The notes beneath the pieces were generated by a model, which saw only the letters and a list, made by a program, of their open reading frames with translations, made no database searches and was not told the DNA's origin. A DNA stretch of 64,000 nucleotides from Fibrobacteria bacterium (GTDB lineage: Bacteria; Fibrobacterota; Fibrobacteria; UBA5070), in NCBI GenBank assembly GCA_035913415.1, contig JAMIIV010000004.1, positions 57,767 to 121,766 of the forward strand, read 5' to 3'. A program made the translations under genes and the position numbers. Numbering within the stretch: position 1 is the stretch's first letter; each line of letters begins with the position of its first letter. Shown in pieces: positions 2,180-53,725 of the stretch.

Positions 2180-3955
2180 ATGCGCTCCACCCTACTTGCC
2201 GCCTCCGTCTGCTCCCTGCCCTTGGCCGCTGATGCCTGGCGCAGCAGCCTGTATCCCGAGAATTGGACCCCCCCGGTCCAGGATTCCTTCTACACCGACA
2301 AGTTCCTGCAGGATTATTCGTATGCCGGATACCGGCTCGGCGACCCGATCCCGGCGCAGGTGCCCGGACCGGTTCTCGACGCTTCGAAGGCCCCGTTCCT
2401 CGCCGATGCTTCCGGCAAGCTGGACGCCACTGCCTCCATCCAGAAAGCCATCGATTCGGCGACCAAGGCCGGGGGAGGGGTGGTGTTCCTGCCCGCAGGA
2501 ACCTATCGCCTTTCGGTCGGCGGGACCGCCACCGCGGCACTCCAGATCGGTTCATCCCGCGTGGTGCTGCGGGGCGCGGGGGCCGGCAAGACCTTCCTGC
2601 TGAACACCACCACCTCGATGCGCAGCAAGGCCGTGATCAAGGTGTCGCCCTCGGTCGGGGGCACCTGGACCTCCATCCCCTCCTCGAAGGTCCTCGTGAC
2701 ACGCGACCTTCCCTCTCCCACGCGCACCATCCCGGTGGCCAGCACCGCCGCGTTCAAGGTCGGCGACTGGGTGATCGTGCGCCAGAAGATGAGCGAAGCC
2801 TGGATCGCCGAACACAAGGAGCCCGATTGGGCCGGCATGGCCTCCAAGTTCACCGGTGTCGTGTATTGCCGACGGATCCTGTCCATCGATGCCGCGGCCG
2901 GTACCCTCGGGATCGACATCCCCCTCCGCTACGCCTTGCTGGTGCGCGACACGGCCATGGTGTATCCCGCCCCCGCCATGATCGAGGAGGTGGGGGTCGA
3001 GCACCTTTCGCTGGGCAACGTCCAGAGTCCGGTGGCCACCGGGTGGGGTGAAGAAGACTACAACGATCCCGCCAACGGTTCGTACGAGGCCCACGATTCG
3101 TGGCTCCTGAACTTTTCCCGCGTCCGCGATGGTTGGATCCGCGGGGTCGAGACCTACCAGCCTGCGGGGAACACGACGACCGCCCACCTGTTGTCCAACG
3201 GAATCCAGCTCTACCAGACACGCGGCGTCTCGATCGATTCCTGCCACTTCCAGCGGCCGCAATACGGCGGCGGCGGAGGCAACGGGTACATGTACAGGGT
3301 CACCGGGAACGAAAACCTCCTGAAGGATTCCAGGGCCACCCACAGCCGCCACGGGTTCGTCCTGTCGCACATGCTCGCCTCGGGCAACGTGTTCCTGCGG
3401 GCCCACGACAAGGACGGAGGCCGGCAGACGGGGTCGACGGGAAGCGAGAGGACCTCCGGCCGCGGCAACGACCACCACATGCACTTCAGCCACAGCAACC
3501 TCTTCGACAACTGCGTGGCCGAGAACAGCAACTTCCAGGCGGCCTACCGTCCCTACGGGTCGGCGCCTTTGCACAACCTGACCGCCGCGCACTCCACCTA
3601 CTGGAACACGGAAGGGATCGGGACCGATCCGTGGGTGATCCACACCCAGCAGTCGCGCTACGGGTACGTGTTCGGCACGCGCGGGGCCGTCACCGAGGTG
3701 AAGATCACCGAGGCATCGGCCGGTTCGGCCGCGAAGACGGATCCTGTCGACATCGTGGAAGGCAAGGGCCTGGGCGCCACCCTGGTTCCGGCCAGTCTCT
3801 ACGAAGACCAGTTGGCCCGGCGCAAGGCGCGTGAGGCGGTGGGTGTGGCACGTGAGCAGGGTAGTCCTATCGCTCCGACGAACGAGGTGCGCTTCACGGG
3901 CAAGAGCATGCAGCTGGGTGAACATCGTGTCGACGGAGCGCGATTGGCGCCCTGA
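2180..3955 (+). CDS. secreted right-handed beta-helix glycoside hydrolase (pectate-lyase superfamily, GH28/GH55-like)
   Basis: Internal Met of ORF 2000..3955. Signal peptide MRSTLLAASVCSLPLAADA. Motif DATASIQKAIDSATKAGGGVVFLPAGTYRL is typical of Pectate_lyase_3 / GH55-like proteins. GAGGA ribosome-binding site 10 nt upstream. Confidence 0.65.
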   Translation: MRSTLLAASVCSLPLAADAWRSSLYPENWTPPVQDSFYTDKFLQDYSYAGYRLGDPIPAQVPGPVLDASKAPFLADASGKLDATASIQKAIDSATKAGGGVVFLPAGTYRLSVGGTATAALQIGSSRVVLRGAGAGKTFLLNTTTSMRSKAVIKVSPSVGGTWTSIPSSKVLVTRDLPSPTRTIPVASTAAFKVGDWVIVRQKMSEAWIAEHKEPDWAGMASKFTGVVYCRRILSIDAAAGTLGIDIPLRYALLVRDTAMVYPAPAMIEEVGVEHLSLGNVQSPVATGWGEEDYNDPANGSYEAHDSWLLNFSRVRDGWIRGVETYQPAGNTTTAHLLSNGIQLYQTRGVSIDSCHFQRPQYGGGGGNGYMYRVTGNENLLKDSRATHSRHGFVLSHMLASGNVFLRAHDKDGGRQTGSTGSERTSGRGNDHHMHFSHSNLFDNCVAENSNFQAAYRPYGSAPLHNLTAAHSTYWNTEGIGTDPWVIHTQQSRYGYVFGTRGAVTEVKITEASAGSAAKTDPVDIVEGKGLGATLVPASLYEDQLARRKAREAVGVAREQGSPIAPTNEVRFTGKSMQLGEHRVDGARLAP

Positions 3956-21454: not shown

Positions 21455-22773
21455 GGTCTGCCTTCGAAGGAGAGGGGTTCGCCGGAGAGGGAACGCAAAC
21501 GCAGGGCCAATCCCGCTTCGCGCAACGACAACTGGGAGAGGCGGGCGCGCAGTTCGCTTTCGCGGAGCGTGGCGTCCAGGAGATCGTCGGGCTGCGAGGC
21601 GCCGGACGCCACCGCTCCCGCCACCGCCTGGCGAGCTTCGGTTGCCGCCTCCAGGGCAGCAGACAAGGCATCGCGTTCGCCCGCGATCCTGTCTCGCTCG
21701 TCTCGAAGCAGCGCCCATTGCGTGTCGCGCTGCAACGTGGTTCTGGCGGCTTCCAGCTCCAGGGCGCGCGATTCGGCCAGGAGCCGCCGCGAGGACGCCG
21801 AGCGCTCGAAGCCGTCGAACAGGTTCCACTGGGCCTGCACCCCGGCCACGCCCCAGGTGGTCCAGCCTTCGCCGAACTGGTTCACGCCGGGATCACCGGT
21901 CCGCACGCCCGCTTGGGCGGCCACCACGGGCCATCGTCCCGATGTGGCCGCGCCACGGGCTTCCTGGATCGATCCCGCCTGCTCCTTCAGGGCGCGTGCC
22001 AGCCACGATTCGTCGGGTTCCGCCGGGACGGACTCCGGACAGAATCCGACATCCAGCGAGTCCGCGAGGGAGCCCGGCCAGGCGATTCCCGCCAGGGCGC
22101 GGAACTCGGCGGCCAGGCTGTCCACGACGCGTCGCGTGGCGAGCGTGTCCGCCACCGCGCGCAGCAGTTCGGCTTTCGCCTGCAGGCTCTGGGCCCGGGT
22201 CGAGGTCCCGCCCTTCTCGCGCGCTTGCCAGGCCGCCATCCACGACGCCTTCGCCTGGACCCGGTCGCGGCGCAGGCGAAGCTCCACCGCTTGGATGCGC
22301 AGACCGAGGTCCACAAGCCCCATCTGCAGCGCGAGCATCGAGCGAACCTGCCGACCTTCGTGCCGCGTGGCCTCCAGGGCTCGGACTTCCCGCGCTCGGG
22401 CGTGTCGCGAAGAAAAACCGGAGAACAGCACCCAACTGGCCGTGAGTCCGGCCTCGATCCTGTCGTGGTCGCCCAGTTCCCTTTCCATGGTGAGCGGACG
22501 CGCCCCGGGAACGGGGGACGGCAGGGAGAGCTCCAATGTGGGGACTTCCGACACGTATTGCCAGCTTCCCGTCGCGTCCAGCCGCGGCAGCAGCGAGGCC
22601 CGGGTCTGGGCGACGGCCTCTTCGCGCGCCGTCTCGCGCTGGCGTGTGGCGGCCAGCGCTGGGTGGGTGGCTTCGAGGTGGCTCCACACGGCAGCCAACG
22701 GGTGCGGTTCGCAGGCGGCCTTCGCCAACGCCGACGACACCAGAACGAGGATCCATGCGCGCGCGGCGGTCAT
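21451..22773 (-). CDS. TolC-family outer-membrane efflux protein
   Basis: Internal Met MTAARAWILVLVSSALAKAA (signal peptide). Two-repeat OEP architecture, 440 aa. Confidence 0.8.
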   Translation of the reverse strand: MTAARAWILVLVSSALAKAACEPHPLAAVWSHLEATHPALAATRQRETAREEAVAQTRASLLPRLDATGSWQYVSEVPTLELSLPSPVPGARPLTMERELGDHDRIEAGLTASWVLFSGFSSRHARAREVRALEATRHEGRQVRSMLALQMGLVDLGLRIQAVELRLRRDRVQAKASWMAAWQAREKGGTSTRAQSLQAKAELLRAVADTLATRRVVDSLAAEFRALAGIAWPGSLADSLDVGFCPESVPAEPDESWLARALKEQAGSIQEARGAATSGRWPVVAAQAGVRTGDPGVNQFGEGWTTWGVAGVQAQWNLFDGFERSASSRRLLAESRALELEAARTTLQRDTQWALLRDERDRIAGERDALSAALEAATEARQAVAGAVASGASQPDDLLDATLRESELRARLSQLSLREAGLALRLRSLSGEPLSFEGRP

Positions 22774-23429
22774 CGTGCGGCCCCGCTGGGGAAGGTCGAC
22801 AAGATCACCGTGTCGGCGATGGCGCGACACCGGGCTTCGAGGAAGGCGTCGTCGAAGTTCTCCAGGATGCCCGCGGCAGGCAGGATCCGCGAATAGAGAG
22901 GACGCAGAAGGAAGGTTCCCCACACCATGGAGAACAGGTTGATCAGGATATGGACGGGCTCGACGGTGGGCTTGGCCTCATTCTTGGCCAACTGGTCCGT
23001 GACCCCTGTGAACAGCCGTTTGGCCATCGGGGCCAAGGCCTCCAGAAGGGGGGCGATGTTGCGGCCCCCATCGGACAGCTCCCGGATCATCATGCCCACG
23101 CACTCCGGGTGCTCCCGCAGAACGGTCATGTACGCGTGCACCAGCCTGCGGATCGATTGTTCCGGGGTGCTGTCCGCGGCACTGGTGGCCACCGCGACGA
23201 TGCGTCCTTTCACCATGTCGACGATGGAGCGCAGAACCGTCTGGTAGAGGCCTTCCTTGTCGCGGAAGTGGTAATGCAGCAGGGCCTTGTTGGCCCCCGC
23301 ACGGTCGGCGATCTCCTGCATGCGCGCCCCGCGCAGGCCATTCTCGATGAACTCCGTGCGGGCCGCCGCCAGGATACGCTCCCGGGTTCCGTCGTCCGCT
23401 CCCGTCGCCGTGTTGGGGCGGGGAGTCAT
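22770..23429 (-). CDS. TetR-family transcriptional regulator
   Basis: N-terminal HTH RERILAAARTEFIENGLRGARMQEIADRAGANKALLHYHF is a classic TetR_N domain. First gene of the efflux operon. Confidence 0.85.
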   Translation of the reverse strand: MTPRPNTATGADDGTRERILAAARTEFIENGLRGARMQEIADRAGANKALLHYHFRDKEGLYQTVLRSIVDMVKGRIVAVATSAADSTPEQSIRRLVHAYMTVLREHPECVGMMIRELSDGGRNIAPLLEALAPMAKRLFTGVTDQLAKNEAKPTVEPVHILINLFSMVWGTFLLRPLYSRILPAAGILENFDDAFLEARCRAIADTVILSTFPSGAAR

Positions 23430-23468
23430 GACTGCCCTCCGGTGTGCCCACGACCTTGATTGATTGGT

Positions 23469-23484
23469 TTAACCATATGGTCAA
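23469..23484. promoter_or_regulatory. near-perfect palindrome TTAACCATATGGTCAA (candidate TetR operator)
   Basis: 14 of 16 positions are symmetric. Located 40 bp upstream of the tetR start within the divergent intergenic region. Confidence 0.35.
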
Positions 23485-23514
23485 GATATCCTCCGGTCGA
23501 CCGCGAAGTCAAGA

Positions 23515-23556
23515 GGGAAAACAAAACGCCCTCCCGCGAGATGTCGCGGAAGGGCG
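23515..23556 (-). terminator. rho-independent terminator on the minus strand (13-bp GC stem, then UUUUGUUUUCCC)
   Basis: Minus-strand read: CGCCCTTCCGCGACATCTCGCGGGAGGGCG followed by TTTTGTTTTCCC. Confidence 0.4.
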
Positions 23557-23588
23557 TCGGGACGGAGATGTGGGAGAGGTGCAGCGGA

Positions 23589-23660
23589 TCAGAAGAACCA
23601 AGCGCTCTCGATCGACGTCTGCAGAGCGATCAGAAGCTGGAAGATCTGGATGGTGGCCAT
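23589..23660 (-). CDS. candidate 23-aa hydrophobic small protein MATIQIFQLLIALQTSIESAWFF
   Basis: GGAG ribosome-binding site 8 nt upstream of the ATG. Lies between a sigma-54-type promoter (23692..23712) and the terminator (23515..23556). Not in the ORF track because it is below the size cutoff. Confidence 0.25.
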   Translation of the reverse strand: MATIQIFQLLIALQTSIESAWFF

Positions 23661-23691
23661 GGTAAGTCTCCGTTAGAGGGTTGCTTCATGG

Positions 23692-23712
23692 TGTTGCAGG
23701 AAGCGTGCCAAC
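23692..23712 (-). promoter_or_regulatory. sigma-54-type promoter TGGCACGCTTCCTGCA (-24 GG / -12 GC correctly spaced), minus strand
   Basis: Reverse complement of plus-strand tgttgcaggaagcgtgccaac. Matches the TGGCAC-N5-TTGCW consensus with exactly 10 nt between GG and GC. Confidence 0.4.
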
Positions 23713-23894
23713 ACAGTGATGGAGCAACCCGAGGGAATAAACGCCATCGCTGCAGGTCGAGTACTGCAGGCCTTTGGGCGTTTGGGGCGTGGAAGACTCG
23801 AACCTGCAGGACGAGGAATCGGGACACCATTGGCCGGATGGAGTTCCTGTCGGACCATCAGAGATGGAGCGAATCCCTAGATTGGGACACGCAC

Positions 23895-25085
23895 ATGGAC
23901 AGACGAACGGCCCAGAGGGGTAAGACCAATTCGCGTGGGGGGCTAATCGTCCTGCTGGGAGCCCTGGCCGCCTTGGGTCCGTTCTCCATCGATACCTACC
24001 TGCCTGCCTTTGCGACGATGGCCGTGGACTTCCACACCGACGTGGGGCAGATCGGCCTCTCCCTGAGCTCGTACTTCCTGGGGATCTGCTTGGGGCAGCT
24101 CGCCTACGGTCCGTTGCTCGACCGCTTCGGCCGCCGTACCCCTTTGCTGTGGGGGCTGGGGCTCTACGCCGTGGCGTCGCTGCTGTGCGCCCTCGCACCC
24201 GGTGTGGTGGCCTTGGTCGCCCTGCGATTCCTGCAGGCCCTGGGGGGATGCGCCGGCATGGTCGCCGGTCGAGCCCTGGTGCGCGACTTGTTCCCGGATG
24301 ATGCCGCCGACGTCTTCAGTTCCTTGATGCTGGTCATGGGCATCGCCCCGGTGATCGCGCCTACGGTGGGGGCCGTGTTGACCGAGGCGTTTGGGTGGCG
24401 TGCCATCTTCGGTTTCCTTGCCGTGGTTTCCGTGGCGATCTGGTGGGCGATCGTTGCGCGCCTGCCCACCGTCGCCGGACCCGATCCGACCCGGAGCCTG
24501 CATCCCGTCCGGGTGGGACGCGCATATCTGAAGATCTTCGCCGAACGCGAATTCCTGGCCTGGGGTCTTTCGGGCAGTCTGGTTTCCGGGGGCTTGTTCG
24601 CCTACTTGGCCGGATGCCCCGTCGTCTTCATGGAAGTGCTCAGCCTTTCCAGCAAGGCCTTCGGCTGGGTGTTCGCGATCAACGCCCTGGGGCTGATGGC
24701 TGCCAGCCAGCTCAATCGCCGCCTGCTGCGGAGCGCGTCCCCCGAAGCGATCACCCGTGTGGTGCTGTGGAGCCAAGCAGGGACGGGCCTGTTGCTGCTG
24801 GGGTCGGCTGCGCTTGCCTTCGCTCCCGGCATTTACGCGGGGGCGTTCCTGTTCCTGTCGGGGTTGGGGTTCGCGTTCCCCAACACCTCCGCGTTGGCGA
24901 TGCGCCCCTTCGGCGAACAGGCAGGAGTGGCCTCGGCCCTGGTCGGTTCGCTGGGTATGGCCTGCGGCGCCTTGTCGTCGGGCCTGGTCAGTTTGATTCC
25001 CGGCATTTCGGCCATGCCCATGGCCGTGGGCATGGCCGTCAGCGCGATCCTGAGTGTGGTGGTCCTGGAGCTCTACCGCCGCTGA
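23895..25085 (+). CDS. MFS transporter, Bcr/CflA (DHA1) family drug-resistance efflux
   Basis: Internal Met MDRRTAQRGKTNSRGGLIVLLGALAALGPFSIDTYLPAF is typical of the Bcr/CflA N-terminus. 12 TM helices. Confidence 0.8.
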   Translation: MDRRTAQRGKTNSRGGLIVLLGALAALGPFSIDTYLPAFATMAVDFHTDVGQIGLSLSSYFLGICLGQLAYGPLLDRFGRRTPLLWGLGLYAVASLLCALAPGVVALVALRFLQALGGCAGMVAGRALVRDLFPDDAADVFSSLMLVMGIAPVIAPTVGAVLTEAFGWRAIFGFLAVVSVAIWWAIVARLPTVAGPDPTRSLHPVRVGRAYLKIFAEREFLAWGLSGSLVSGGLFAYLAGCPVVFMEVLSLSSKAFGWVFAINALGLMAASQLNRRLLRSASPEAITRVVLWSQAGTGLLLLGSAALAFAPGIYAGAFLFLSGLGFAFPNTSALAMRPFGEQAGVASALVGSLGMACGALSSGLVSLIPGISAMPMAVGMAVSAILSVVVLELYRR

Positions 25086-44467: not shown

Positions 44468-46204
44468 TCAGCCTTCGAGGTCGGGAGGGGCGTACATCCC
44501 CAGCCGGCGCAGGAGGTCGCGCAGCACCTTGCGATCGATCCCCAGGATGGCGCCGGCCTGCGTCAGGTTGCCTCCGGAGCGCGCCATGGCCGCTTCCACG
44601 GCCGCGCGTTCGGCGGCCTCGCGCGCCTCGGCGAGGGTGCCCAGGGGAGCTGCGGCCTCGGGCAGGCCCAGGTGCTCGGGAAGGATGCGTTCCCCCGCGG
44701 CCAGCAGGAGCGAACGCTGGATGCTGTTTTCCAGCTCGCGGACGTTTCCTGTCCACGAGTGCCGCAGCAGGGCCTTTTCGGCCGCCCTTCCGAGTCCACC
44801 GAAAGGCACCCCGAATTCGCGGGAGGCCTTGTGGGCGAAGACCCGCGCCAGGGGGAGCACGTCGTCGGGTCGGTCCCTCAAGGGGGGCAGCTTCACGGTC
44901 GCCACGTTCAGCCGGAACAGGAGGTCCTGCCGGAAACGACCTTCGCGGACCAGGGCTTCCAGGTCGCGGTGGGTGGCGGCCACGATCCGCACGTCGACAC
45001 CGATCTCGCGCGAGGATCCGACCTTCCGGATGGTCTTTTCCTGCAGGGCGCGGAGCAGGGCGGCCTGCAGTTGCGCGGGAAGCTCGCCGATCTCGTCGAG
45101 GAACAAGGTGCCTCCGCCGGCGGTCTCGAAGAGACCCATGCGCTCGCCCGTAGCACCGGTGAAGGCGCCGCGCTCGTGGCCGAAAAGCTCGGACTCCATG
45201 AGGGATTCGGGGATCGCGGCGCAGTTGATGGCCACGAAGGGCCCCTGGGCGCGGGGTGAAGACAGGTGGACCAGGCGGGCGAGCTTCTCCTTGCCGGTGC
45301 CCGTTTCACCCAGCACCAGCAGCGGCACGCTGGCCGAGGCGAAGCGGCGGGCGTGGGCGATGGCCGCCAGCATGTTGGGCGCGAAGGCCAGCAGCCCGCC
45401 GTTGGGCTCTCCGCCCAGAAGCGACAGGGCCGCGCGGTCGTCGTGGTGGCGGCGAGCGGCGCCCAGCACGCGGGCCAGCGAGGCGAGCAGCCGGTCGAAG
45501 GCCGCCCGTTCGGGCTCGCCGAAGGGAGCGGCGCGGCCGGTCCGGTGCAGGTAGAGGCAGCCCAGGGGGGCGGTGGCCTCGGTGGCGCGGATCGGGGCGC
45601 ACAGGATGGAGCGGATGTCGGACACCCGCAGCGAAGGACCGGCGAGCGAAGCGCCCTCTTCGCCGGATTCCGACCACAACACCGCCGCGCCGCACTCCAG
45701 GCACGAGCGGACCGCCGAGCGCGAGGGCTTGGGGGCTCCGGTGGAGGGCCAGACGGAAACCGTCTCGGAGAAGTCGTCGCCGCCCAGCAGGGCGCCGCCG
45801 TCGGCGTCGAGATGGGCGGCGGCGAATTCCAGAAGGCGGGGCAGCACCGCCGAGGGGTCGTCGGCTTCGAGGAGGGTCTCGATGGCGGCCAGGACGGGTT
45901 CGACCGGAAGGCGGACGGGCTCGTGGCGGCGCAGGATTAGGACGGTCCCGCCCGAGAGGCGGATCTCGCCGCCATCCACAAGGTCCACGGGAATGCCGGG
46001 GGTGGCCGGTTGCCCTCCGATCCGCAGGCCCTTGACCTGGGGCTCGGCCACGACGCGGTCGGGCAGGCTCAGAAGCTGGACCTCGACGGCCTGGCCGCCC
46101 GGGAGACGCAGGTCGCATCCCGGGCCGGATCCGAGGAGCGAGAGTTTCCTCTCGAGGGGGAGACGGATTCCGTCAACAGTCTGCAGGATCCAGGGATGGG
46201 TCAT
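44468..46204 (-). CDS. sigma-54-dependent transcriptional activator with N-terminal FHA domain (FHA-GAF-AAA+-HTH)
   Basis: Internal Met [34 protein letters not shown] (FHA-like). AAA+ motifs GETGTGKE and [16 protein letters not shown]-terminal Fis-type HTH. ATGA overlap with the kinase stop. Confidence 0.85.
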
Positions 46205-47517
46205 CGAGGGTCTTCGTGGTTCGGAGGAAGGTCTGGCGAGGTGCGAACCTCGCCGAGCCAGACGGTGTCCAGGATCAGGAGGCCGACCGCGTCGCGCAAT
46301 TGGATGCGGTGACGGCCTGTTCCCAGCAGGAGCCGGCCGTCGGAGGGCATGTCGGTGGGGAGGCCGTCCACCCGCAGCGAAGCTCCCGGAGGCAGCGAAG
46401 GCAAGGGGAAGCTCTCGATCGCGGTGGGGCCGAACGGGTGGGAGGGGTCTTCCCAGCCCGGATGCCGCGGAGTGGCACGTACCGGGGCGGTGGTGGCGCG
46501 GGCAGGGAGGCGGGCCCAAAAGGCGATGCCGACCGCCGCCGCCAGCAGGACCGCTCCGAGGAGGATCCAGAAGGATCGGGGTCTTCGGGACGAGGCGCGC
46601 AGGCGTGCGTAGCGCCCCAGATCGGGCAGAAGGGTCTCGGGGTCGTCGGAGCGTTCCAGTCGTTCCCGCTGCCAGCGCCAGGCATCGTTCCAGGCGCCGG
46701 AGGCCTCGGCCTGACGGATGGCTTGGGTGAGCAGGGTTTCCAGGCGAGACCAGGCTTGCCGGCGCAGGCATTCCCGGGGCCAGTCCTGCGGACGGGATCC
46801 CAGGGACCCGGCCAATTCGAGGGCGGTGGGCCGGCACTGCGGGTTCAGGTCGACGGCGCGCGCCACCAGGGGCAGGTCGGTGGCCAAGGACGACAGGCCT
46901 TCCTCGAGCACGGCCGAGGTCCATTCCTCACGGGTGGTCGTCCAGGCATGTGGAATGCGGCCCAACAGGCGCAGGCACAACACACCCAGCGCGAAGACGT
47001 CGGAGGCCGGGGTTGCTGGTCGACCGGCCAGTCGTTCGGGAGAGAGGGTTTCCCAGGTTCCCTGGAGGGGGAGGTCACCGATGGAGGCCATACCCAGGTC
47101 GATGGCCAACACCTCACCGGTGGGGATGGCCAGCAGATTGGCCATCGAGAGATCTCCGTGGACAACATCTCGGGAGTGCAGGGACGCGACGGCCCGTGCG
47201 GCGCTGGACACCAGGGCGAGACGTTCGTTGGCGTCGAGGTCGGGGGGGAGGTTGTCCAGGGGTACGCCGTCGATCCAGCTCATGGCGATCCAGGGGCGGG
47301 AGCTCTCGAGGTTCTTGTCGAGGAGGGCTGGTACGGGGGCGCCAGGAAGGCGCTCCAGGAGTTCGGCTTCGGCGCGCAGTTCGTGGGGGTCGCGGGGGTC
47401 GGTCTTCACGACCACCCATCGCCCGGGGACATCCTGCCACGCCAGCCAGGTGCGGGCTTGTCCGCCGCCGCCCAGGGACACCCCGGCGGAAAAACCCTGG
47501 GGCGGGGAGGGTTTCAC
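46201..47517 (-). CDS. membrane-anchored Hanks-type Ser/Thr protein kinase (atypical catalytic loop)
   Basis: GTG start in a GTGA overlap with the TPR gene stop. Gly loop GVSLGGGGQARTW, the lysine in VVVK, catalytic loop HGDLSMANLL, DLG in place of DFG, one TM helix, and a ~110-aa extracytoplasmic tail. Confidence 0.7.
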   Translation of the reverse strand: MKPSPPQGFSAGVSLGGGGQARTWLAWQDVPGRWVVVKTDPRDPHELRAEAELLERLPGAPVPALLDKNLESSRPWIAMSWIDGVPLDNLPPDLDANERLALVSSAARAVASLHSRDVVHGDLSMANLLAIPTGEVLAIDLGMASIGDLPLQGTWETLSPERLAGRPATPASDVFALGVLCLRLLGRIPHAWTTTREEWTSAVLEEGLSSLATDLPLVARAVDLNPQCRPTALELAGSLGSRPQDWPRECLRRQAWSRLETLLTQAIRQAEASGAWNDAWRWQRERLERSDDPETLLPDLGRYARLRASSRRPRSFWILLGAVLLAAAVGIAFWARLPARATTAPVRATPRHPGWEDPSHPFGPTAIESFPLPSLPPGASLRVDGLPTDMPSDGRLLLGTGRHRIQLRDAVGLLILDTVWLGEVRTSPDLPPNHEDPR

Positions 47518-49821: not shown

Positions 49822-50262
49822 TCAGACGTTTTCCGTCTCGGCCGGTGCACCCAGGATCTCCGGGAGCCTGGGGTGGGGACGCCGCGGACGGCCCCCCGGA
49901 CCCATGCAGACGTGCACGGTGTGTCCGCTCGAGAGCAAGGTGTCGCCGTGGCCGACGCGCACCACCTGGTAGTCGAAGCGAAAGCGCAGGCCGTCCAGCA
50001 TGCGGCCGGTCATGAGCACTTCGACCTCGTCGCCGTAGCGGGCGGGCGAGGTGTAGTCGCAGTGGGCCGACAGGACCGGGATCGCGAAGCCGTCGCGCTC
50101 CAGGCCGGCGTAGGGAAGCCCCCACGATTCGAGCGCTTCGGTGCGGGCGACCTCGAACCACACGAGATGGTTGGCGTAGTACACGAACCCCATCTGGTCG
50201 GTCTCGGCGTAGCGGACGCGGATGCGCGTGGTGTACCGGCGCCCGGCGGGCAGCAGGGTCAT
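49822..50262 (-). CDS. 4HBT/YbgC-family acyl-CoA thioesterase
   Basis: Internal Met MTLLPAGRRYTTRIRVRYAETDQMGFVYYANHLVWFEVAR is a hot-dog-fold signature. ATGA overlap with the regulator gene stop. Confidence 0.75.
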   Translation of the reverse strand: MTLLPAGRRYTTRIRVRYAETDQMGFVYYANHLVWFEVARTEALESWGLPYAGLERDGFAIPVLSAHCDYTSPARYGDEVEVLMTGRMLDGLRFRFDYQVVRVGHGDTLLSSGHTVHVCMGPGGRPRRPHPRLPEILGAPAETENV

Positions 50263-51743
50263 TCGTCGTCGCCGGAGAAGCGGGTCATGCCCAGGTCGCG
50301 GATCTTCTGCTGCAGGCTCTGGCGGTGCATCTCCAACGTGGCGGCGGCGCGGCTGACGTTGCCTCCCGATTTTTCCAGATGCATCTGGATGAAGCGACGT
50401 TCGAAGTCGTCGACCACCAGCGCCTTGGCCTCCCGGAACGGCAGGTCGCATCGGACCGGAGGCAGACCGAGCCAGCCGTCGGCGGCAGGTGGTGCCAAGC
50501 CGGGTGCGCCGGAATCCGGGGGAGCGGGCAGATCGGCCAAATCGGGCAACCCCGCCGCATCCGTCACTCCCGGGGGGCATGGTCCGACCACCGAGGCGGG
50601 CAGTCCCAACACCTCCGGGCCCACTTCCGTGGAGCGTGCCAGCACGCTGGCCCGTTCCACGACGTTGCGCAGCTCGCGCACGTTCCCGGGCCAGTCGTAG
50701 GCCAGCAGGGCTTTCTCGGCGCGCGCGGCAAAACGCAGCGGGCGCTGCCCCGCGTAGTGGGCCAGGAAGGCGCGGGCCAGGAGCAGGACGTCTTCGCCGC
50801 GTTCGCGCAGGGCGGGAAGCCGCACCACCAGCACTTCCAGGCGGTAGCGGAGGTCGTCGCGGAAACGTCCTTCCTGCCCCATGGCCTGGAGGTCGCGGTG
50901 GGTGGCGGCCACCACGCGCAGGTCCACTTCCACCGGCTGGGTGGATCCCACGGGCTCGACCTGACGTTCCTCGAGCACCCGCAGCAGGCGCGTCTGGGCT
51001 TCCAGAGGCATGTCGCCGATTTCATCCAGGAAAAGGGTGCCACCTTCGGCCTGGCGGACCTTTCCGATCTTGGCGGTCAGCGCCCCGGTGAAGGCGCCTT
51101 TTTCGTGCCCGAACAGTTCGGCCTCGATGAGCGAAGAGGGAAGCGCGCCGCAATTGACCGCCACAAACGGCCCCTTGCGGCCCGAAAGCTCGTGGAGCCG
51201 CCGTGCGACCAGCTCCTTGCCCGTTCCGGATTCGCCCAGAAGCAGCACGCTGGCCGATGCCGGACCCATCAAGGTCACGTCTTCCAGCAGGCGCCTCATG
51301 GCGGGGCTTTCCCCCAGCACGCCCAGGCGCGGCCGTCGCGAGTCGAGTTCTTCGCGCAGGCGTTCGGATTCGGCACGGGAACGGGCGAAGGCGGCGGCGC
51401 GCTCCAGGACCATCACCAGTTCGTCGGGGTCGGCGGGTTTGATCAGATAATCGTGGGCGCCGCGGCGCATCGCCTCGACGGCGATCTTCTCGCTGCCTTG
51501 GGCGGTGAACAGCACCACCGGTGGGGCCGACGGGCGCTGGGACAAGACCGACAACACACTCAGGCCGTCCATCCCTCCCATCTGGAAATCCAGCAGCACG
51601 GCATCGAAGGGCCGGGCCGCGGTGACCTTCAGACACTCCTCGCCGGATCCGGCCTCGACCACCTCGTGCCCGGCGGAGGTCAGCAGACGCCGGGCGCCGT
51701 AGCGGGCGGCGGGTTCGTCGTCGACGACAAGAAATCGGCTCAT
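50259..51743 (-). CDS. sigma-54-dependent two-component response regulator (NtrC family)
   Basis: Receiver domain MSRFLVVDDEP. AAA+ motifs GESGTGKE and GAFTGA. C-terminal HTH. GGGAG ribosome-binding site before the second ATG. Confidence 0.85.
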   Translation of the reverse strand: MSRFLVVDDEPAARYGARRLLTSAGHEVVEAGSGEECLKVTAARPFDAVLLDFQMGGMDGLSVLSVLSQRPSAPPVVLFTAQGSEKIAVEAMRRGAHDYLIKPADPDELVMVLERAAAFARSRAESERLREELDSRRPRLGVLGESPAMRRLLEDVTLMGPASASVLLLGESGTGKELVARRLHELSGRKGPFVAVNCGALPSSLIEAELFGHEKGAFTGALTAKIGKVRQAEGGTLFLDEIGDMPLEAQTRLLRVLEERQVEPVGSTQPVEVDLRVVAATHRDLQAMGQEGRFRDDLRYRLEVLVVRLPALRERGEDVLLLARAFLAHYAGQRPLRFAARAEKALLAYDWPGNVRELRNVVERASVLARSTEVGPEVLGLPASVVGPCPPGVTDAAGLPDLADLPAPPDSGAPGLAPPAADGWLGLPPVRCDLPFREAKALVVDDFERRFIQMHLEKSGGNVSRAAATLEMHRQSLQQKIRDLGMTRFSGDDE

Positions 51744-53725
51744 GGACGCTCCCAAAACAGGCGGAAGACCGTGCGACCGGGTTCACCCAGGTGGACAACG
51801 CGTCCTTGGGCCTCCTCGGCGCGCTTGCGGCAAATGTAAAGCCCCAGTCCGGTACCTCCTCGCGAGGCCAGCGGGCGGAACAGGCGGGGACGGAAATCGT
51901 CGGGGATCTCGCCATCGTTGGACACCGAAAGGGACGGGCCGTCGGCCGAGAGTTCGATCCGCACGACCGACCCATGTGGCGCGTGCTGCAAGGCGTTGAG
52001 CACCAGGTTGAAGACCACGGCCTTGATGTCGTTTTCCGACATCGGCATGGGGACCGCGCCGTCGGGACAGGAGAGCTCCAGGCGGATGCCCCGACTGCGG
52101 GATTCCTGGTCGAGCAGGCCGCAGACCGAGCGCAATGTGGCCACGGCGTCTTCGCAGGTCTCGCGGTCGCGGGCGAAGTGGAGCATGCGTCGGACGGTGG
52201 CGTCCAGCCGGTCTACCTCCGAGGCGATCATCGCGAGATCCTCGCGGAGCACAGATCCCTCCGGCGCTTCCCGCCCGGCGGCGTGGGCGATGTTGCGGAT
52301 GGCCGAGAGGGGATTCTTGATCTCGTGGGCGGCCGAGGCCGAAAGCAGGCCGAGCATCGCCAGGCGCTCGCCTTCCTGCAGCCGGCGTTCGGTCTCGAGG
52401 CTGCGCTGGAGCTCGGCGCGGGAGTCCAGGGCCGACTGCAGGCTGCCCAGCACGCCGGAAAGCCGCGCGTAGACCTCCGCCGGCAGGCGCGAGGCCTTGC
52501 GGCTGGCGCCCAGGACGATGGCGATGTCGGGGGGGGCTTGGTCGCCGCCTTCCGGGCGCAGGCGCACGGGAAGCAGAAGCCTGCCTCCGAGCTCCTCCCA
52601 GGCGAAGGTGGTCTCGCGGTCCTTGGCGCGGCGCAGCGAGGCGACGCGGCGCGGGCCGCCGTCGCGCAGGATGGTGGCCACGGCGGGGCGCGAGGCGTCC
52701 AGCACCGCCGTCGGGCAAGACAGAATCCGTCCGAGGCATCGGGCGACGAACGAGGGGAGGTCGGTGGGGAGACGCCGGCCGCGCAGCCGTTCCTCGAGGG
52801 CCGAAAGGGCCTTGCCCTCGCGCTGGAGTCGCCAATTGAGCGCGTGCGAGAGCGTGTGCACGGCCACCGCGGGCAAGGGGCCCAGCAGCAGGAAGAACCC
52901 GACACCGGCCATGACCAGGGTGGCCATGCGGTCGAGGGCGGTGCCGGGGAAGAGGAACTTGTGCACCATGAACGCGGTGAACGGAAGCGCGAAGGACAGC
53001 GATCGCCACAGCGAAGCGCGGGTCACTTCCAGGGCCACGGTCCGGGTGCGGTAGGCCACCAGCAGCAGCGCGGCGGGGGGCAGCAGGTGGGCGAGATCGA
53101 ACAGCAGGACCCACTTGACCTCCTGGGCGCGGTAGCCGCCCTGCATCATCTTGGCCGCCAGCGACCCGACCAGCAGGGCGCCGCTCCACCACAAGGCCTT
53201 CTCCATGGGGGCCGCGACCTTGTGGCCCACGACGGGAATGCGGTGCGCGGCCCGTCGCAGGAGAAGCGCCCCGGCGAAGCAATGGAGGGCATCCGACAGC
53301 AGGAACAGGCGGACCAGGTCCTCGATGTTGCGCAGGAAGCTGTTCATGGGCCCCGAGGCGATGGGGCCGAACCCTGTGGCGATGAACAGGGCGGGGATCA
53401 CGTACCACACAAAAGGCGGGACGCGGCGCATCTGGGTCCAGACCGCCAACCCGTGCAGGAGCATCCCCGCCTGGATGTTGAGCAGGCTTCCCTTCAGGAT
53501 GTCCAGGCACATCGAGAACACCGGGAAACGCCCGATGTCGAGGGATTCGAGATTCAGCGTGATGAATGTGAGGGCGTACCAGGTGGACCAGCAGAGGGTC
53601 CATCCGAACAGGATGGGGTTGTACCAGAGGGCGGCGGTATGGCGCGAGCGCGCCGAACCGGCATGCACGTGGGCCAGAGCGCCCGCGGCGACCAGGATCA
53701 GCTCCAGGAGCTGCGCGGTGTTCAT
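51740..53725 (-). CDS. sensor histidine kinase with 7TM receptor domain
   Basis: Seven N-terminal TM helices, H-box HEIKNPLSAI, and an HATPase_c domain. ATGA overlap with the regulator gene start. Confidence 0.8.
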   Translation of the reverse strand: MNTAQLLELILVAAGALAHVHAGSARSRHTAALWYNPILFGWTLCWSTWYALTFITLNLESLDIGRFPVFSMCLDILKGSLLNIQAGMLLHGLAVWTQMRRVPPFVWYVIPALFIATGFGPIASGPMNSFLRNIEDLVRLFLLSDALHCFAGALLLRRAAHRIPVVGHKVAAPMEKALWWSGALLVGSLAAKMMQGGYRAQEVKWVLLFDLAHLLPPAALLLVAYRTRTVALEVTRASLWRSLSFALPFTAFMVHKFLFPGTALDRMATLVMAGVGFFLLLGPLPAVAVHTLSHALNWRLQREGKALSALEERLRGRRLPTDLPSFVARCLGRILSCPTAVLDASRPAVATILRDGGPRRVASLRRAKDRETTFAWEELGGRLLLPVRLRPEGGDQAPPDIAIVLGASRKASRLPAEVYARLSGVLGSLQSALDSRAELQRSLETERRLQEGERLAMLGLLSASAAHEIKNPLSAIRNIAHAAGREAPEGSVLREDLAMIASEVDRLDATVRRMLHFARDRETCEDAVATLRSVCGLLDQESRSRGIRLELSCPDGAVPMPMSENDIKAVVFNLVLNALQHAPHGSVVRIELSADGPSLSVSNDGEIPDDFRPRLFRPLASRGGTGLGLYICRKRAEEAQGRVVHLGEPGRTVFRLFWERP

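Follow-up and report, generated by a model that had tools for sequence, protein, structure and literature searches.

Organization of the tetR-MFS intergenic region

The 64-kb stretch of a Fibrobacteria bacterium genome analyzed in this study (contig JAMIIV010000004.1; hereafter, the window) contains an intergenic region of 466 nt (23430-23895) that separates tetR, the first gene of an efflux operon, from a divergent gene for an MFS transporter. On the minus strand of this region, we found a compact array of features comprising a sigma-54-type -24/-12 element, a Shine-Dalgarno sequence, a 23-codon open reading frame (ORF) for a hydrophobic peptide, and an intrinsic terminator (Table 1). The initial annotation of this DNA had described a self-contained unit of ~170 nt with promoter, ribosome-binding site, 23-aa ORF and terminator. 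Such a unit is indeed present, and it is conserved in a diverged relative (JGI 3300010202; hereafter L004), the sole diverged locus carrying it. In our opinion, the region probably harbors an unannotated, monocistronic gene for a hydrophobic peptide of 23 residues, which would depend on sigma-54 and a bacterial enhancer-binding protein (bEBP) and would be insulated from tetR by a terminator of its own.

Orthologous tetR loci were collected via homologues of TetR. In L004, whose operon proteins are ~78% identical to those of the window, the whole unit lies upstream of tetR in the same place and orientation. Moreover, three contigs of the window species recovered from three other samples (L053, L055, and L056) have intergenic regions 99.4-99.8% identical to that of the window and encode an identical peptide. 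The sources of the DNA contigs were SRR22387946, SRR16110262, ERR12389213 and JGI 3300010202. Another contig, L054, ends 63 nt upstream of tetR. It could be argued that the motifs of the unit co-occur by chance and have no function. A lone sigma-54-like match and a lone terminator-like hairpin can each arise randomly, and many sigma-54 binding sites of E. coli are transcriptionally silent (PMC4591121). However, every element of the unit is conserved as a block while the spacers stand at 31-57% identity, the terminator carries a compensatory change, and the ORF is intact. As an independent, diverged genome preserves the entire unit in blocks, the arrangement rises above chance, and we find a mere coincidence of motifs barely credible.

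Table 1. Features of the tetR-MFS intergenic region and related genes of the window, with nucleotide identity to the L004 locus
Feature	Position	Strand	Identity to L004	Remarks
tetR	22770-23429	-		First gene of the tetR-OEP-HlyD/MFP-ABC-ABC-ABC2 efflux operon; Pfam hits
tetR leader			33%	
Probable TetR operator	23455-23485	-		31-bp imperfect palindrome CTTGAC-N3-(A)TGGTT-A-AACCA(T)-N3-(G)TCAAG
tetR promoter, sigma-70-type	23483-23512	-		TTGACT-18 nt-TATCTT; -35/-10 conserved in relatives lacking the small unit
tetR promoter and operator together			75%	
Intrinsic terminator	23515-23558	-	79% (hairpin)	Hairpin 23558-23525, stem almost fully conserved; tail UUUUGUUUUC 23524-23515
C-rich 3' spacer	23559-23588	-	57%, with indels	30 nt
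23-codon ORF and stop	23589-23660	-	90% (codons 1-13); 82% (codons 14 to stop)	MATIQIFQLLIALQTSIESAWFF; translation; L004 orthologue
Predicted 5' leader	23661-23684	-	83%	Shine-Dalgarno GGAG 23671-23668; start G23684 from standard geometry
Sigma-54-type -24/-12 element	23695-23710	-	88%	TGGCACGCTTCCTGCA; near-consensus; sole match in the window
Spacer, repeats to promoter			39%	38 nt, directly upstream of the -24/-12 element
Putative enhancer (bEBP-binding) site	23750-23769	-	78%	Two CTGCAG hexamers, 23750-23755 and 23764-23769
Third CTGCAG hexamer	23804-23809	-		CCTGCAGG; about -122; window species only, unalignable in L004
Far upstream			31%	
MFS (Bcr/CflA-like) transporter gene	23895-25085	+		Divergent; context only, outside the small unit; Pfam MFS_1; start fixed by orthologue alignment
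bEBP gene, GAF type	44468-46924	-		GAF + Sigma54_activat + HTH_8; GAFTGA motif; Pfam
bEBP gene, response regulator	50259-51755	-		Receiver + Sigma54_activat + HTH_8; GAFTGA motif; Pfam
Histidine kinase gene	51740-53725	-		Adjoins the response-regulator bEBP gene

A predicted sigma-54 promoter with upstream repeats

In the window, no other minus-strand gene that the terminator could serve lies upstream of it, and a minus-strand promoter is therefore needed inside the intergenic region. The GG-N10-GC motif proposed for this strand is found at 23710-23695. The element departs from the consensus TGGCAC-N5-TTGCW at a single position (C for T before the GC), with the GG and GC spaced as in sigma-54 promoters, and it is the single match to TGGCACG-N4-YTGCW in the 64 kb (0.03 expected; at least one match in 3 of 100 shuffles). 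In L004 it reads TGGCACGGATCCTGCA, and the two differences both fall within the low-information spacer, leaving the GG and TGC unchanged. Conserved high-information positions combined with a drifting spacer are a sign of selection on sigma-54 sites (PMC4591121), a description that the differences between TGGCACGCTTCCTGCA and TGGCACGGATCCTGCA fit well. According to standard sigma-54 geometry, transcription is predicted to start at G23684, 12 nt past the -12 C.

Further upstream, the two conserved CTGCAG hexamers, whose centres are near -68 and -82 relative to the predicted start, form an inverted repeat (TGCAG-N8-CTGCA) in a block flanked by spacers with 31-39% identity to L004. The 100 bp preceding the -24 element contain CTGCAG three times against 0.056 expected from its density in the window, which gives a Poisson probability of ~3x10^-5 for a motif that was picked post hoc. 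It is reasonable to regard these repeats as putative activator sites. The window codes for two bEBPs (Table 1), either of which could activate the small gene, and the existence of sigma-54 in this organism is therefore implied. Altogether, the unit is predicted to depend on both sigma-54 and a bEBP.

In the window species, the promoter is also bracketed by a 12-nt inverted repeat (23678-23689/23719-23730, 92% complementary). This repeat was rejected as a functional element, as it is not conserved in L004.

Coding character of the 23-codon ORF

The ribosome-binding site GGAG, which was expected ~40 nt past the sigma-54 motif, is present 39 nt after the motif start and 7 nt ahead of the ATG at 23660. 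The leader carries a single indel between the window and L004, located within the spacer between the Shine-Dalgarno sequence and the start codon, and the GGAG-ATG distance is 6-7 nt in the two copies. The hydrophobic ORF itself, also predicted from this ATG, extends from 23660 to 23589. Its L004 orthologue, MVTVQIFQLLIALQSSIDCSWFF, has the same start, stop, frame and length, with no indel in the ORF even though the flanks carry indels.

The two ORFs differ by ten substitutions (4/1/5 by codon position), three of them synonymous, and the six amino acid replacements are all conservative (A/V, I/V, T/S, E/D, S/C, and A/S). Only 1.5% of random variants with ten substitutions keep the frame open with an equal or better BLOSUM score (P=0.015). 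The dN of the ORF is 0.12, close to the values of the neighbouring genes (0.15-0.27), and its dN/dS is 0.36. Among the 17 identical residues, we counted 3 synonymous codon differences against 3.34 expected (P=0.56) under amino-acid-specific synonymous rates. These rates were derived from five orthologous gene pairs, in which no Ile codon has changed and 7% of the Phe codons have. At first sight, the third positions of the ORF suggested an additional constraint at the RNA level (divergence of 5/23 versus 44% in tetR), a signal that disappeared after controlling for amino acid composition. Other reading frames were likewise discarded. The leader indel disrupts the alternative +1 frame, and the antisense in-register frame is open only within spurious long ORFs typical of high-GC DNA. 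Hence, because start, stop and length are kept, the replacements are conservative, dN/dS is 0.36 and the synonymous rate is normal, the ORF evolves as ordinary coding sequence and not as an RNA under extra constraint. Translation of the 23 codons is predicted on these grounds.

The features of the unit also invite a different explanation, namely that it produces a sigma-54-dependent regulatory RNA in which the ORF is incidental or a second function (a dual-function RNA). A length of ~170 nt with a promoter and a terminator of its own is typical of small RNAs (sRNAs), and sRNAs transcribed from sigma-54 promoters are known. GlmY/GlmZ (with GlrR) and CrcZ (with CbrB) are examples, and the Qrr RNAs are another (bioRxiv 10.1101/2021.07.01.450815). 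Qrr1-5 (with LuxO), GlmY/GlmZ and CrcZ share with the present unit its compact size of ~170 nt, its activator-dependent -24/-12 promoter and its intrinsic terminator. In addition, the leader is 83% identical to that of L004, codons 1-11 show no change at all, and the dS of the ORF (0.33, NG86) is below the 0.58-0.93 of its neighbours. However, the synonymous differences reveal no excess of nucleotide conservation, and the invariance of the first 11 codons has a P of 0.11 under the same rates. The only structure supported by covariation is the terminator, and no other RNA helix is common to the window and L004. This includes a helix between the Shine-Dalgarno sequence and an anti-Shine-Dalgarno segment, which was rejected because it appears in the window fold and is absent from L004. 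When the conserved 5' 70 nt were paired with the initiation regions of tetR and of the MFS, OEP, MFP, ABC, cupin and K-channel genes, none of the duplexes passed the 5% tail of the background (duplexfold, a crude measure). Rfam returned no match at gathering thresholds, and a permissive scan (E<=10) yielded only a chance-level hit to SECIS_3 (E=8.8). Thus, the dual-function sRNA suggested by the initial annotation finds no positive evidence. Dual-function RNAs such as SgrS/SgrT, RNAIII/delta-toxin and AzuCR (reviewed in PMC12612679 and PMC12310071) would be a match only if the small transcript also base-paired. Unlike known sRNAs and dual-function RNAs, the unit has an ORF that evolves as normal coding sequence, and no conserved structure beyond the terminator, no plausible local target and no Rfam family was found for it. 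A pure RNA model also leaves the conservative replacements and the kept frame unexplained. For these reasons, we regard a regulatory RNA as unlikely, albeit worth keeping in mind.

A tRNA T-arm-like sequence, GGTTCGAGTC (23799-23790, minus strand), was considered as the possible remnant of an integration site and discarded, as ARAGORN found no tRNA in the region, Rfam was negative, and the sequence cannot be aligned with L004.

A more specific proposal was that the transcript overlaps, in antisense orientation, the 5' leader of the Bcr/CflA MFS gene and acts in cis on its expression. The unit and the MFS gene are certainly divergent in the window species. Nevertheless, the conserved MFS start codon (ATG 23895) and the predicted transcription start of the unit are 211 nt apart, genes for a K+ channel and a cupin intervene between the unit and the MFS gene in L004, and the sequence separating the two is not conserved (31% identity). 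Pairing of the transcript with the MFS initiation region was no better than background. Consequently, the antisense relationship is not supported, and cis-regulation of the MFS gene by the unit is extremely improbable.

Transcription termination and independence from tetR

The terminator had been described as a 13-bp GC hairpin plus tail at 23515-23556. We confirmed the terminator, with a stem that has to be extended to 15 pairs, including G-U, and limits that become 23515-23558. The hairpin of the window (-29.4 kcal/mol, z = -6.4) is followed by a near-perfect U tract, UUUUGUUUU. In L004, the stem is kept as 13 pairs (-26.9 kcal/mol) with one compensatory change from C-G to A-U. In both genomes, the stem is fully paired on the strand of the unit only, given that the G-U pair becomes an A-C mismatch on the opposite strand, and the U tail is also exclusive to the strand of the unit. 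A scan of 1.3 kb detected one terminator-like hairpin versus 0.6 in shuffles, a number that by itself could be due to chance.

The unit ends 10 nt upstream of the tetR promoter. A 16-bp palindrome had been proposed as the TetR operator, and this 16-mer (TTAACCATATGGTCAA, 23469-23484, plus strand; 14/16 symmetric) proved to be part of a palindrome of 31 bp. The longer palindrome starts within the tetR -10, is centred on GGTT-A-AACC, and constitutes the best-conserved non-coding block in seven loci (the window, L001, L002, L004, L005, L006, and L008). While the extent of the element must be revised, its conservation and its overlap with the tetR -10 favour the operator reading, and the palindrome is very probably a TetR operator that could fit two TetR dimers. 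Since the tetR promoter and operator are kept in loci devoid of the small unit, the unit is best described as a separate add-on.

In agreement with the initial annotation, the unit is located upstream of a TetR-controlled efflux operon, whose genes are tetR-OEP-HlyD-ABC according to Pfam. In E. coli, the cecR(ybiH)-ybhGFSR locus similarly contains a gene for a TetR-family repressor followed by genes for an HlyD-like adaptor (MFP) and an ABC-2 exporter. The present operon shares these components, with two ABC ATPase ORFs, ABC-2 permeases and a palindromic operator at the tetR promoter, and differs in having a gene for an outer-membrane factor (OEP) as well. Nothing in the E. coli locus corresponds to the predicted sigma-54 small gene.

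The position of the unit raises the question of whether the sigma-54 element is in fact a second promoter of the tetR operon, with translation or stalling at the short ORF setting the read-through of the terminator. Certain resistance and ABC transporter genes are preceded by leader-peptide attenuators, and the order short ORF-terminator-operon on a single strand is the classical layout of such systems. The U tract of the L004 terminator is interrupted and could be leaky, and the unit occurs only directly upstream of the efflux operon. On the contrary, we found no conserved antiterminator pairing, and within the unit conservation is lowest (57%, with indels) in the 30-nt spacer between the stop codon and the terminator. 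The Shine-Dalgarno/anti-Shine-Dalgarno helix of the window has no equivalent in L004. Moreover, the window has a very strong terminator that ends in a near-perfect U tract, a conserved promoter and operator belonging to tetR itself come right after it, and orthologous operons function without the unit. Attenuation by a leader peptide therefore seems to us quite improbable.

Properties of the predicted peptide

The peptide is uniformly hydrophobic (GRAVY 1.18; mean Eisenberg hydrophobicity ~0.5), contains no Lys or Arg and a single acidic residue, and has W-F-F at its C-terminus. We calculated a helical hydrophobic moment of 0.13, which is also the mean of shuffled sequences, as compared with 0.44 for PSM-alpha3 and 0.60 for delta-toxin. 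We therefore discarded the idea of an amphipathic peptide of the phenol-soluble modulin type, exported without a leader by the ABC pump, since the moment does not exceed that of shuffles. No match was found to Pfam, NCBIfam or PDB chains at E<=10. A search of 5.8 billion predicted proteins, in which a tandem of both variants served as the query, gave no candidate, as none of the proteins shares even three 5-residue words with the peptide. The hydropathy fits the membrane-like character proposed in the initial annotation, and the peptide would most likely form a single inner-membrane helix.

Small size and hydrophobicity are also properties of Ibs, TisB and other type I toxins, and the narrow, patchy distribution of the unit, with loss in a sister lineage, would suit a membrane-damaging peptide whose translation is repressed by an antisense RNA. 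However, simple consensus scans detected neither promoter-like nor terminator-like elements on the opposite strand, the unit is single-copy in the window and occupies one syntenic position with no sign of mobility, and basic residues, which type I toxins usually contain, are missing from the peptide. An activator-dependent promoter would also be unusual for a toxin gene. Therefore, we consider a type I toxin very improbable.

Rather than to toxins, the predicted membrane peptide can be likened to known small membrane proteins. Its hydropathy profile is similar to those of KdpF and YpdK. KdpF (29 aa, KdpFABC) and AcrZ (49 aa, AcrAB-TolC) are likewise very short and hydrophobic, have few or no charges, and are encoded near transporter genes. 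The present peptide is shorter (23 aa) and bears no sequence similarity to them, and, in contrast to both, its gene forms a terminated unit of its own outside the transporter operon, while orthologous pumps occur without it. AcrZ has been shown to bind and tune a tripartite efflux pump (PMC7267776; PMC12648545). As regards gene organization, the predicted small gene resembles pspG of E. coli, a stand-alone sigma-54-dependent gene whose sole product is a small hydrophobic membrane protein. PspG has ~80 aa and belongs to the Psp membrane-stress regulon. Its gene is monocistronic and depends on sigma-54 and PspF, in line with the sigma-54 control of cell-envelope functions (PMC3068692, PMC2763126, PMC4551910). 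Unlike pspG, the small unit has no homology to this system and no psp genes nearby.

Distribution of the unit and proposed function

Several observations weigh against a functional sigma-54-dependent small gene. Neither the closest sister lineage (L001-L003) nor more distant orthologous loci (L005-L009, L057, and L058) contain the unit, which is therefore dispensable. No further copy was found among ~185,000 species genomes, the JGI metagenome collection and the 5.8 billion predicted proteins. All conservation statistics come from one pairwise comparison with a single diverged orthologue, L004, and the P of 0.015 obtained for the ORF is modest. The L004 U tract is interrupted (UUCGCGUUUUUG), and termination there may be leaky. 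Besides, 23 residues with no flanking positive charges represent the lower limit for a transmembrane helix, and an RpoN-box search of the 64-kb window did not find rpoN.

Regarding the sister lineage, identities over TetR, OEP and MFP are 84.8% between the window and L001, 77.9% between L004 and the window, and 75.8% between L004 and L001. Because L004 diverged further from the window than L001 did, the unit was, most simply, present in the common ancestor and apparently disappeared from the lineage of L001-L003, in which a different upstream neighbour is also found. To search for other family members, we scanned species genomes and JGI metagenome contigs with a degenerate back-translation of Q[IV]FQLL[IV]ALQ. 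The matches (18 in genome contigs and 25 in metagenome contigs) were dismissed as chance, as none ends in WFF-stop, none has an upstream -24/-12 element, and most lie within longer frames. The JGI metagenome scan did not return the contig of L004 itself, which places the L004 sample outside its coverage. Neither tblastn nor blastn detected a paralogue of the unit within the window. As far as these searches reach, the family is confined to two lineages.

Taking these points into account, we still favour a small gene controlled by sigma-54. In the mechanism that we envisage, a bEBP, probably bound to the CTGCAG repeats ~70-80 bp upstream, would activate sigma-54 RNA polymerase at the -24/-12 element to give a transcript of ~170 nt starting near 23684. 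The GGAG would direct translation of the 23-residue peptide, and the strand-specific terminator would end the transcript 10 nt before the tetR -35, insulating tetR, with its own sigma-70-type promoter and operator, from this transcription. As a single inner-membrane helix, the peptide would then bind or modulate a larger membrane protein, in the manner of KdpF and AcrZ. By analogy with these two proteins and with PspG, an action in the inner membrane on such a larger protein is the most likely role of the peptide. The obvious partner would be the tripartite ABC efflux pump encoded next to the unit, yet this choice is speculative, and we would not expect the pairing to be correct. We are similarly doubtful of the bolder proposals that the peptide is a sigma-54-induced, AcrZ-like accessory subunit or regulator of the OEP-MFP-ABC2 pump, or that the transcript is a genuine dual-function RNA. 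If the peptide did modulate an ABC-type tripartite pump, the AcrZ paradigm would extend beyond RND pumps and efflux would be tied to enhancer-dependent transcription. An environmental signal acting through a bEBP could in that case retune efflux independently of TetR.

The small gene is a new orphan of a known kind of system, convincingly conserved and with a very narrow distribution. Genes of this size are invisible to gene callers, and nothing like the peptide exists in the collection of 5.8 billion proteins. Comparative footprinting alone recovered the full regulatory anatomy, from the enhancer-like repeats and sigma-54 promoter to the ribosome-binding site, ORF and terminator, in a phylum with almost no data on small proteins or sigma-54 regulons. 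The significance of the unit is limited by its occurrence in only two closely related uncultured lineages and its loss in the sister lineage.

Neighbouring genes and further sigma-54-like elements

The efflux operon that begins with tetR runs to ~17754 on the minus strand and, according to Pfam, continues with genes for an outer-membrane factor, an HlyD-type adaptor, two ABC ATPase ORFs and ABC-2 permeases. The genes called in the same-species contig L053 include two permeases, and the gene order of the operon is identical in all related loci. On the other side of the unit, the MFS frame is open across the intergenic region from a TTG at 23460 (plus strand), giving an ORF of 541 aa, and the gene calls of the same-species contigs L053 and L055 overextend the MFS gene by 19-21 codons. 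As orthologue alignment places the start at ATG 23895, both the long ORF and the overlong calls are high-GC artefacts.

In L004, the small unit and the MFS gene are separated by the K+-channel gene (Ion_trans_2/IRK_C) and the cupin gene, located at 2195-3578. Gene content upstream of the unit is therefore fluid, while the unit stays linked to tetR. Among the relatives of TetR and of a nearby isocitrate dehydrogenase (IDH), the named ones all correspond to metagenome-assembled genomes (MAGs) of Fibrobacteria/Fibrobacteres. One locus of a related Fibrobacterota MAG (GCA_016718115.1; L059, 1-6287), which was reached via IDH, showed neither synteny nor the unit. Instead of the MFS-tetR arrangement, its IDH neighbourhood contains genes for an MmeI-type restriction-modification system, a DUF87/FtsK-like ATPase and a phage-type integrase, and it looks like an integrated mobile element.

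Elsewhere in the window, two further sigma-54-like elements with TTGA in place of TTGC at the -12 were noted on the minus strand. The weaker of these, TGGCACGGGAGTTGAA (41097-41082), has no CTGCAG nearby. The other, TGGCACATTCGTTGAT (41791-41776), is ~55 nt upstream of an ORF of ~149 aa (ATG 41722 to ~41274, minus strand), and CCTGCAGG recurs 34 nt upstream of this element. The ORF has the ribosome-binding context AACGGAGAC, as in the small unit, and lies ~3 kb downstream of the gene for the GAF-type bEBP. It may belong to the same regulon as the small unit. Its product carries a signal peptide and is rich in His, Pro and Arg (MRTQLAFLALLTLAGTAPAAV...), and could be a candidate ZraP-like periplasmic protein.

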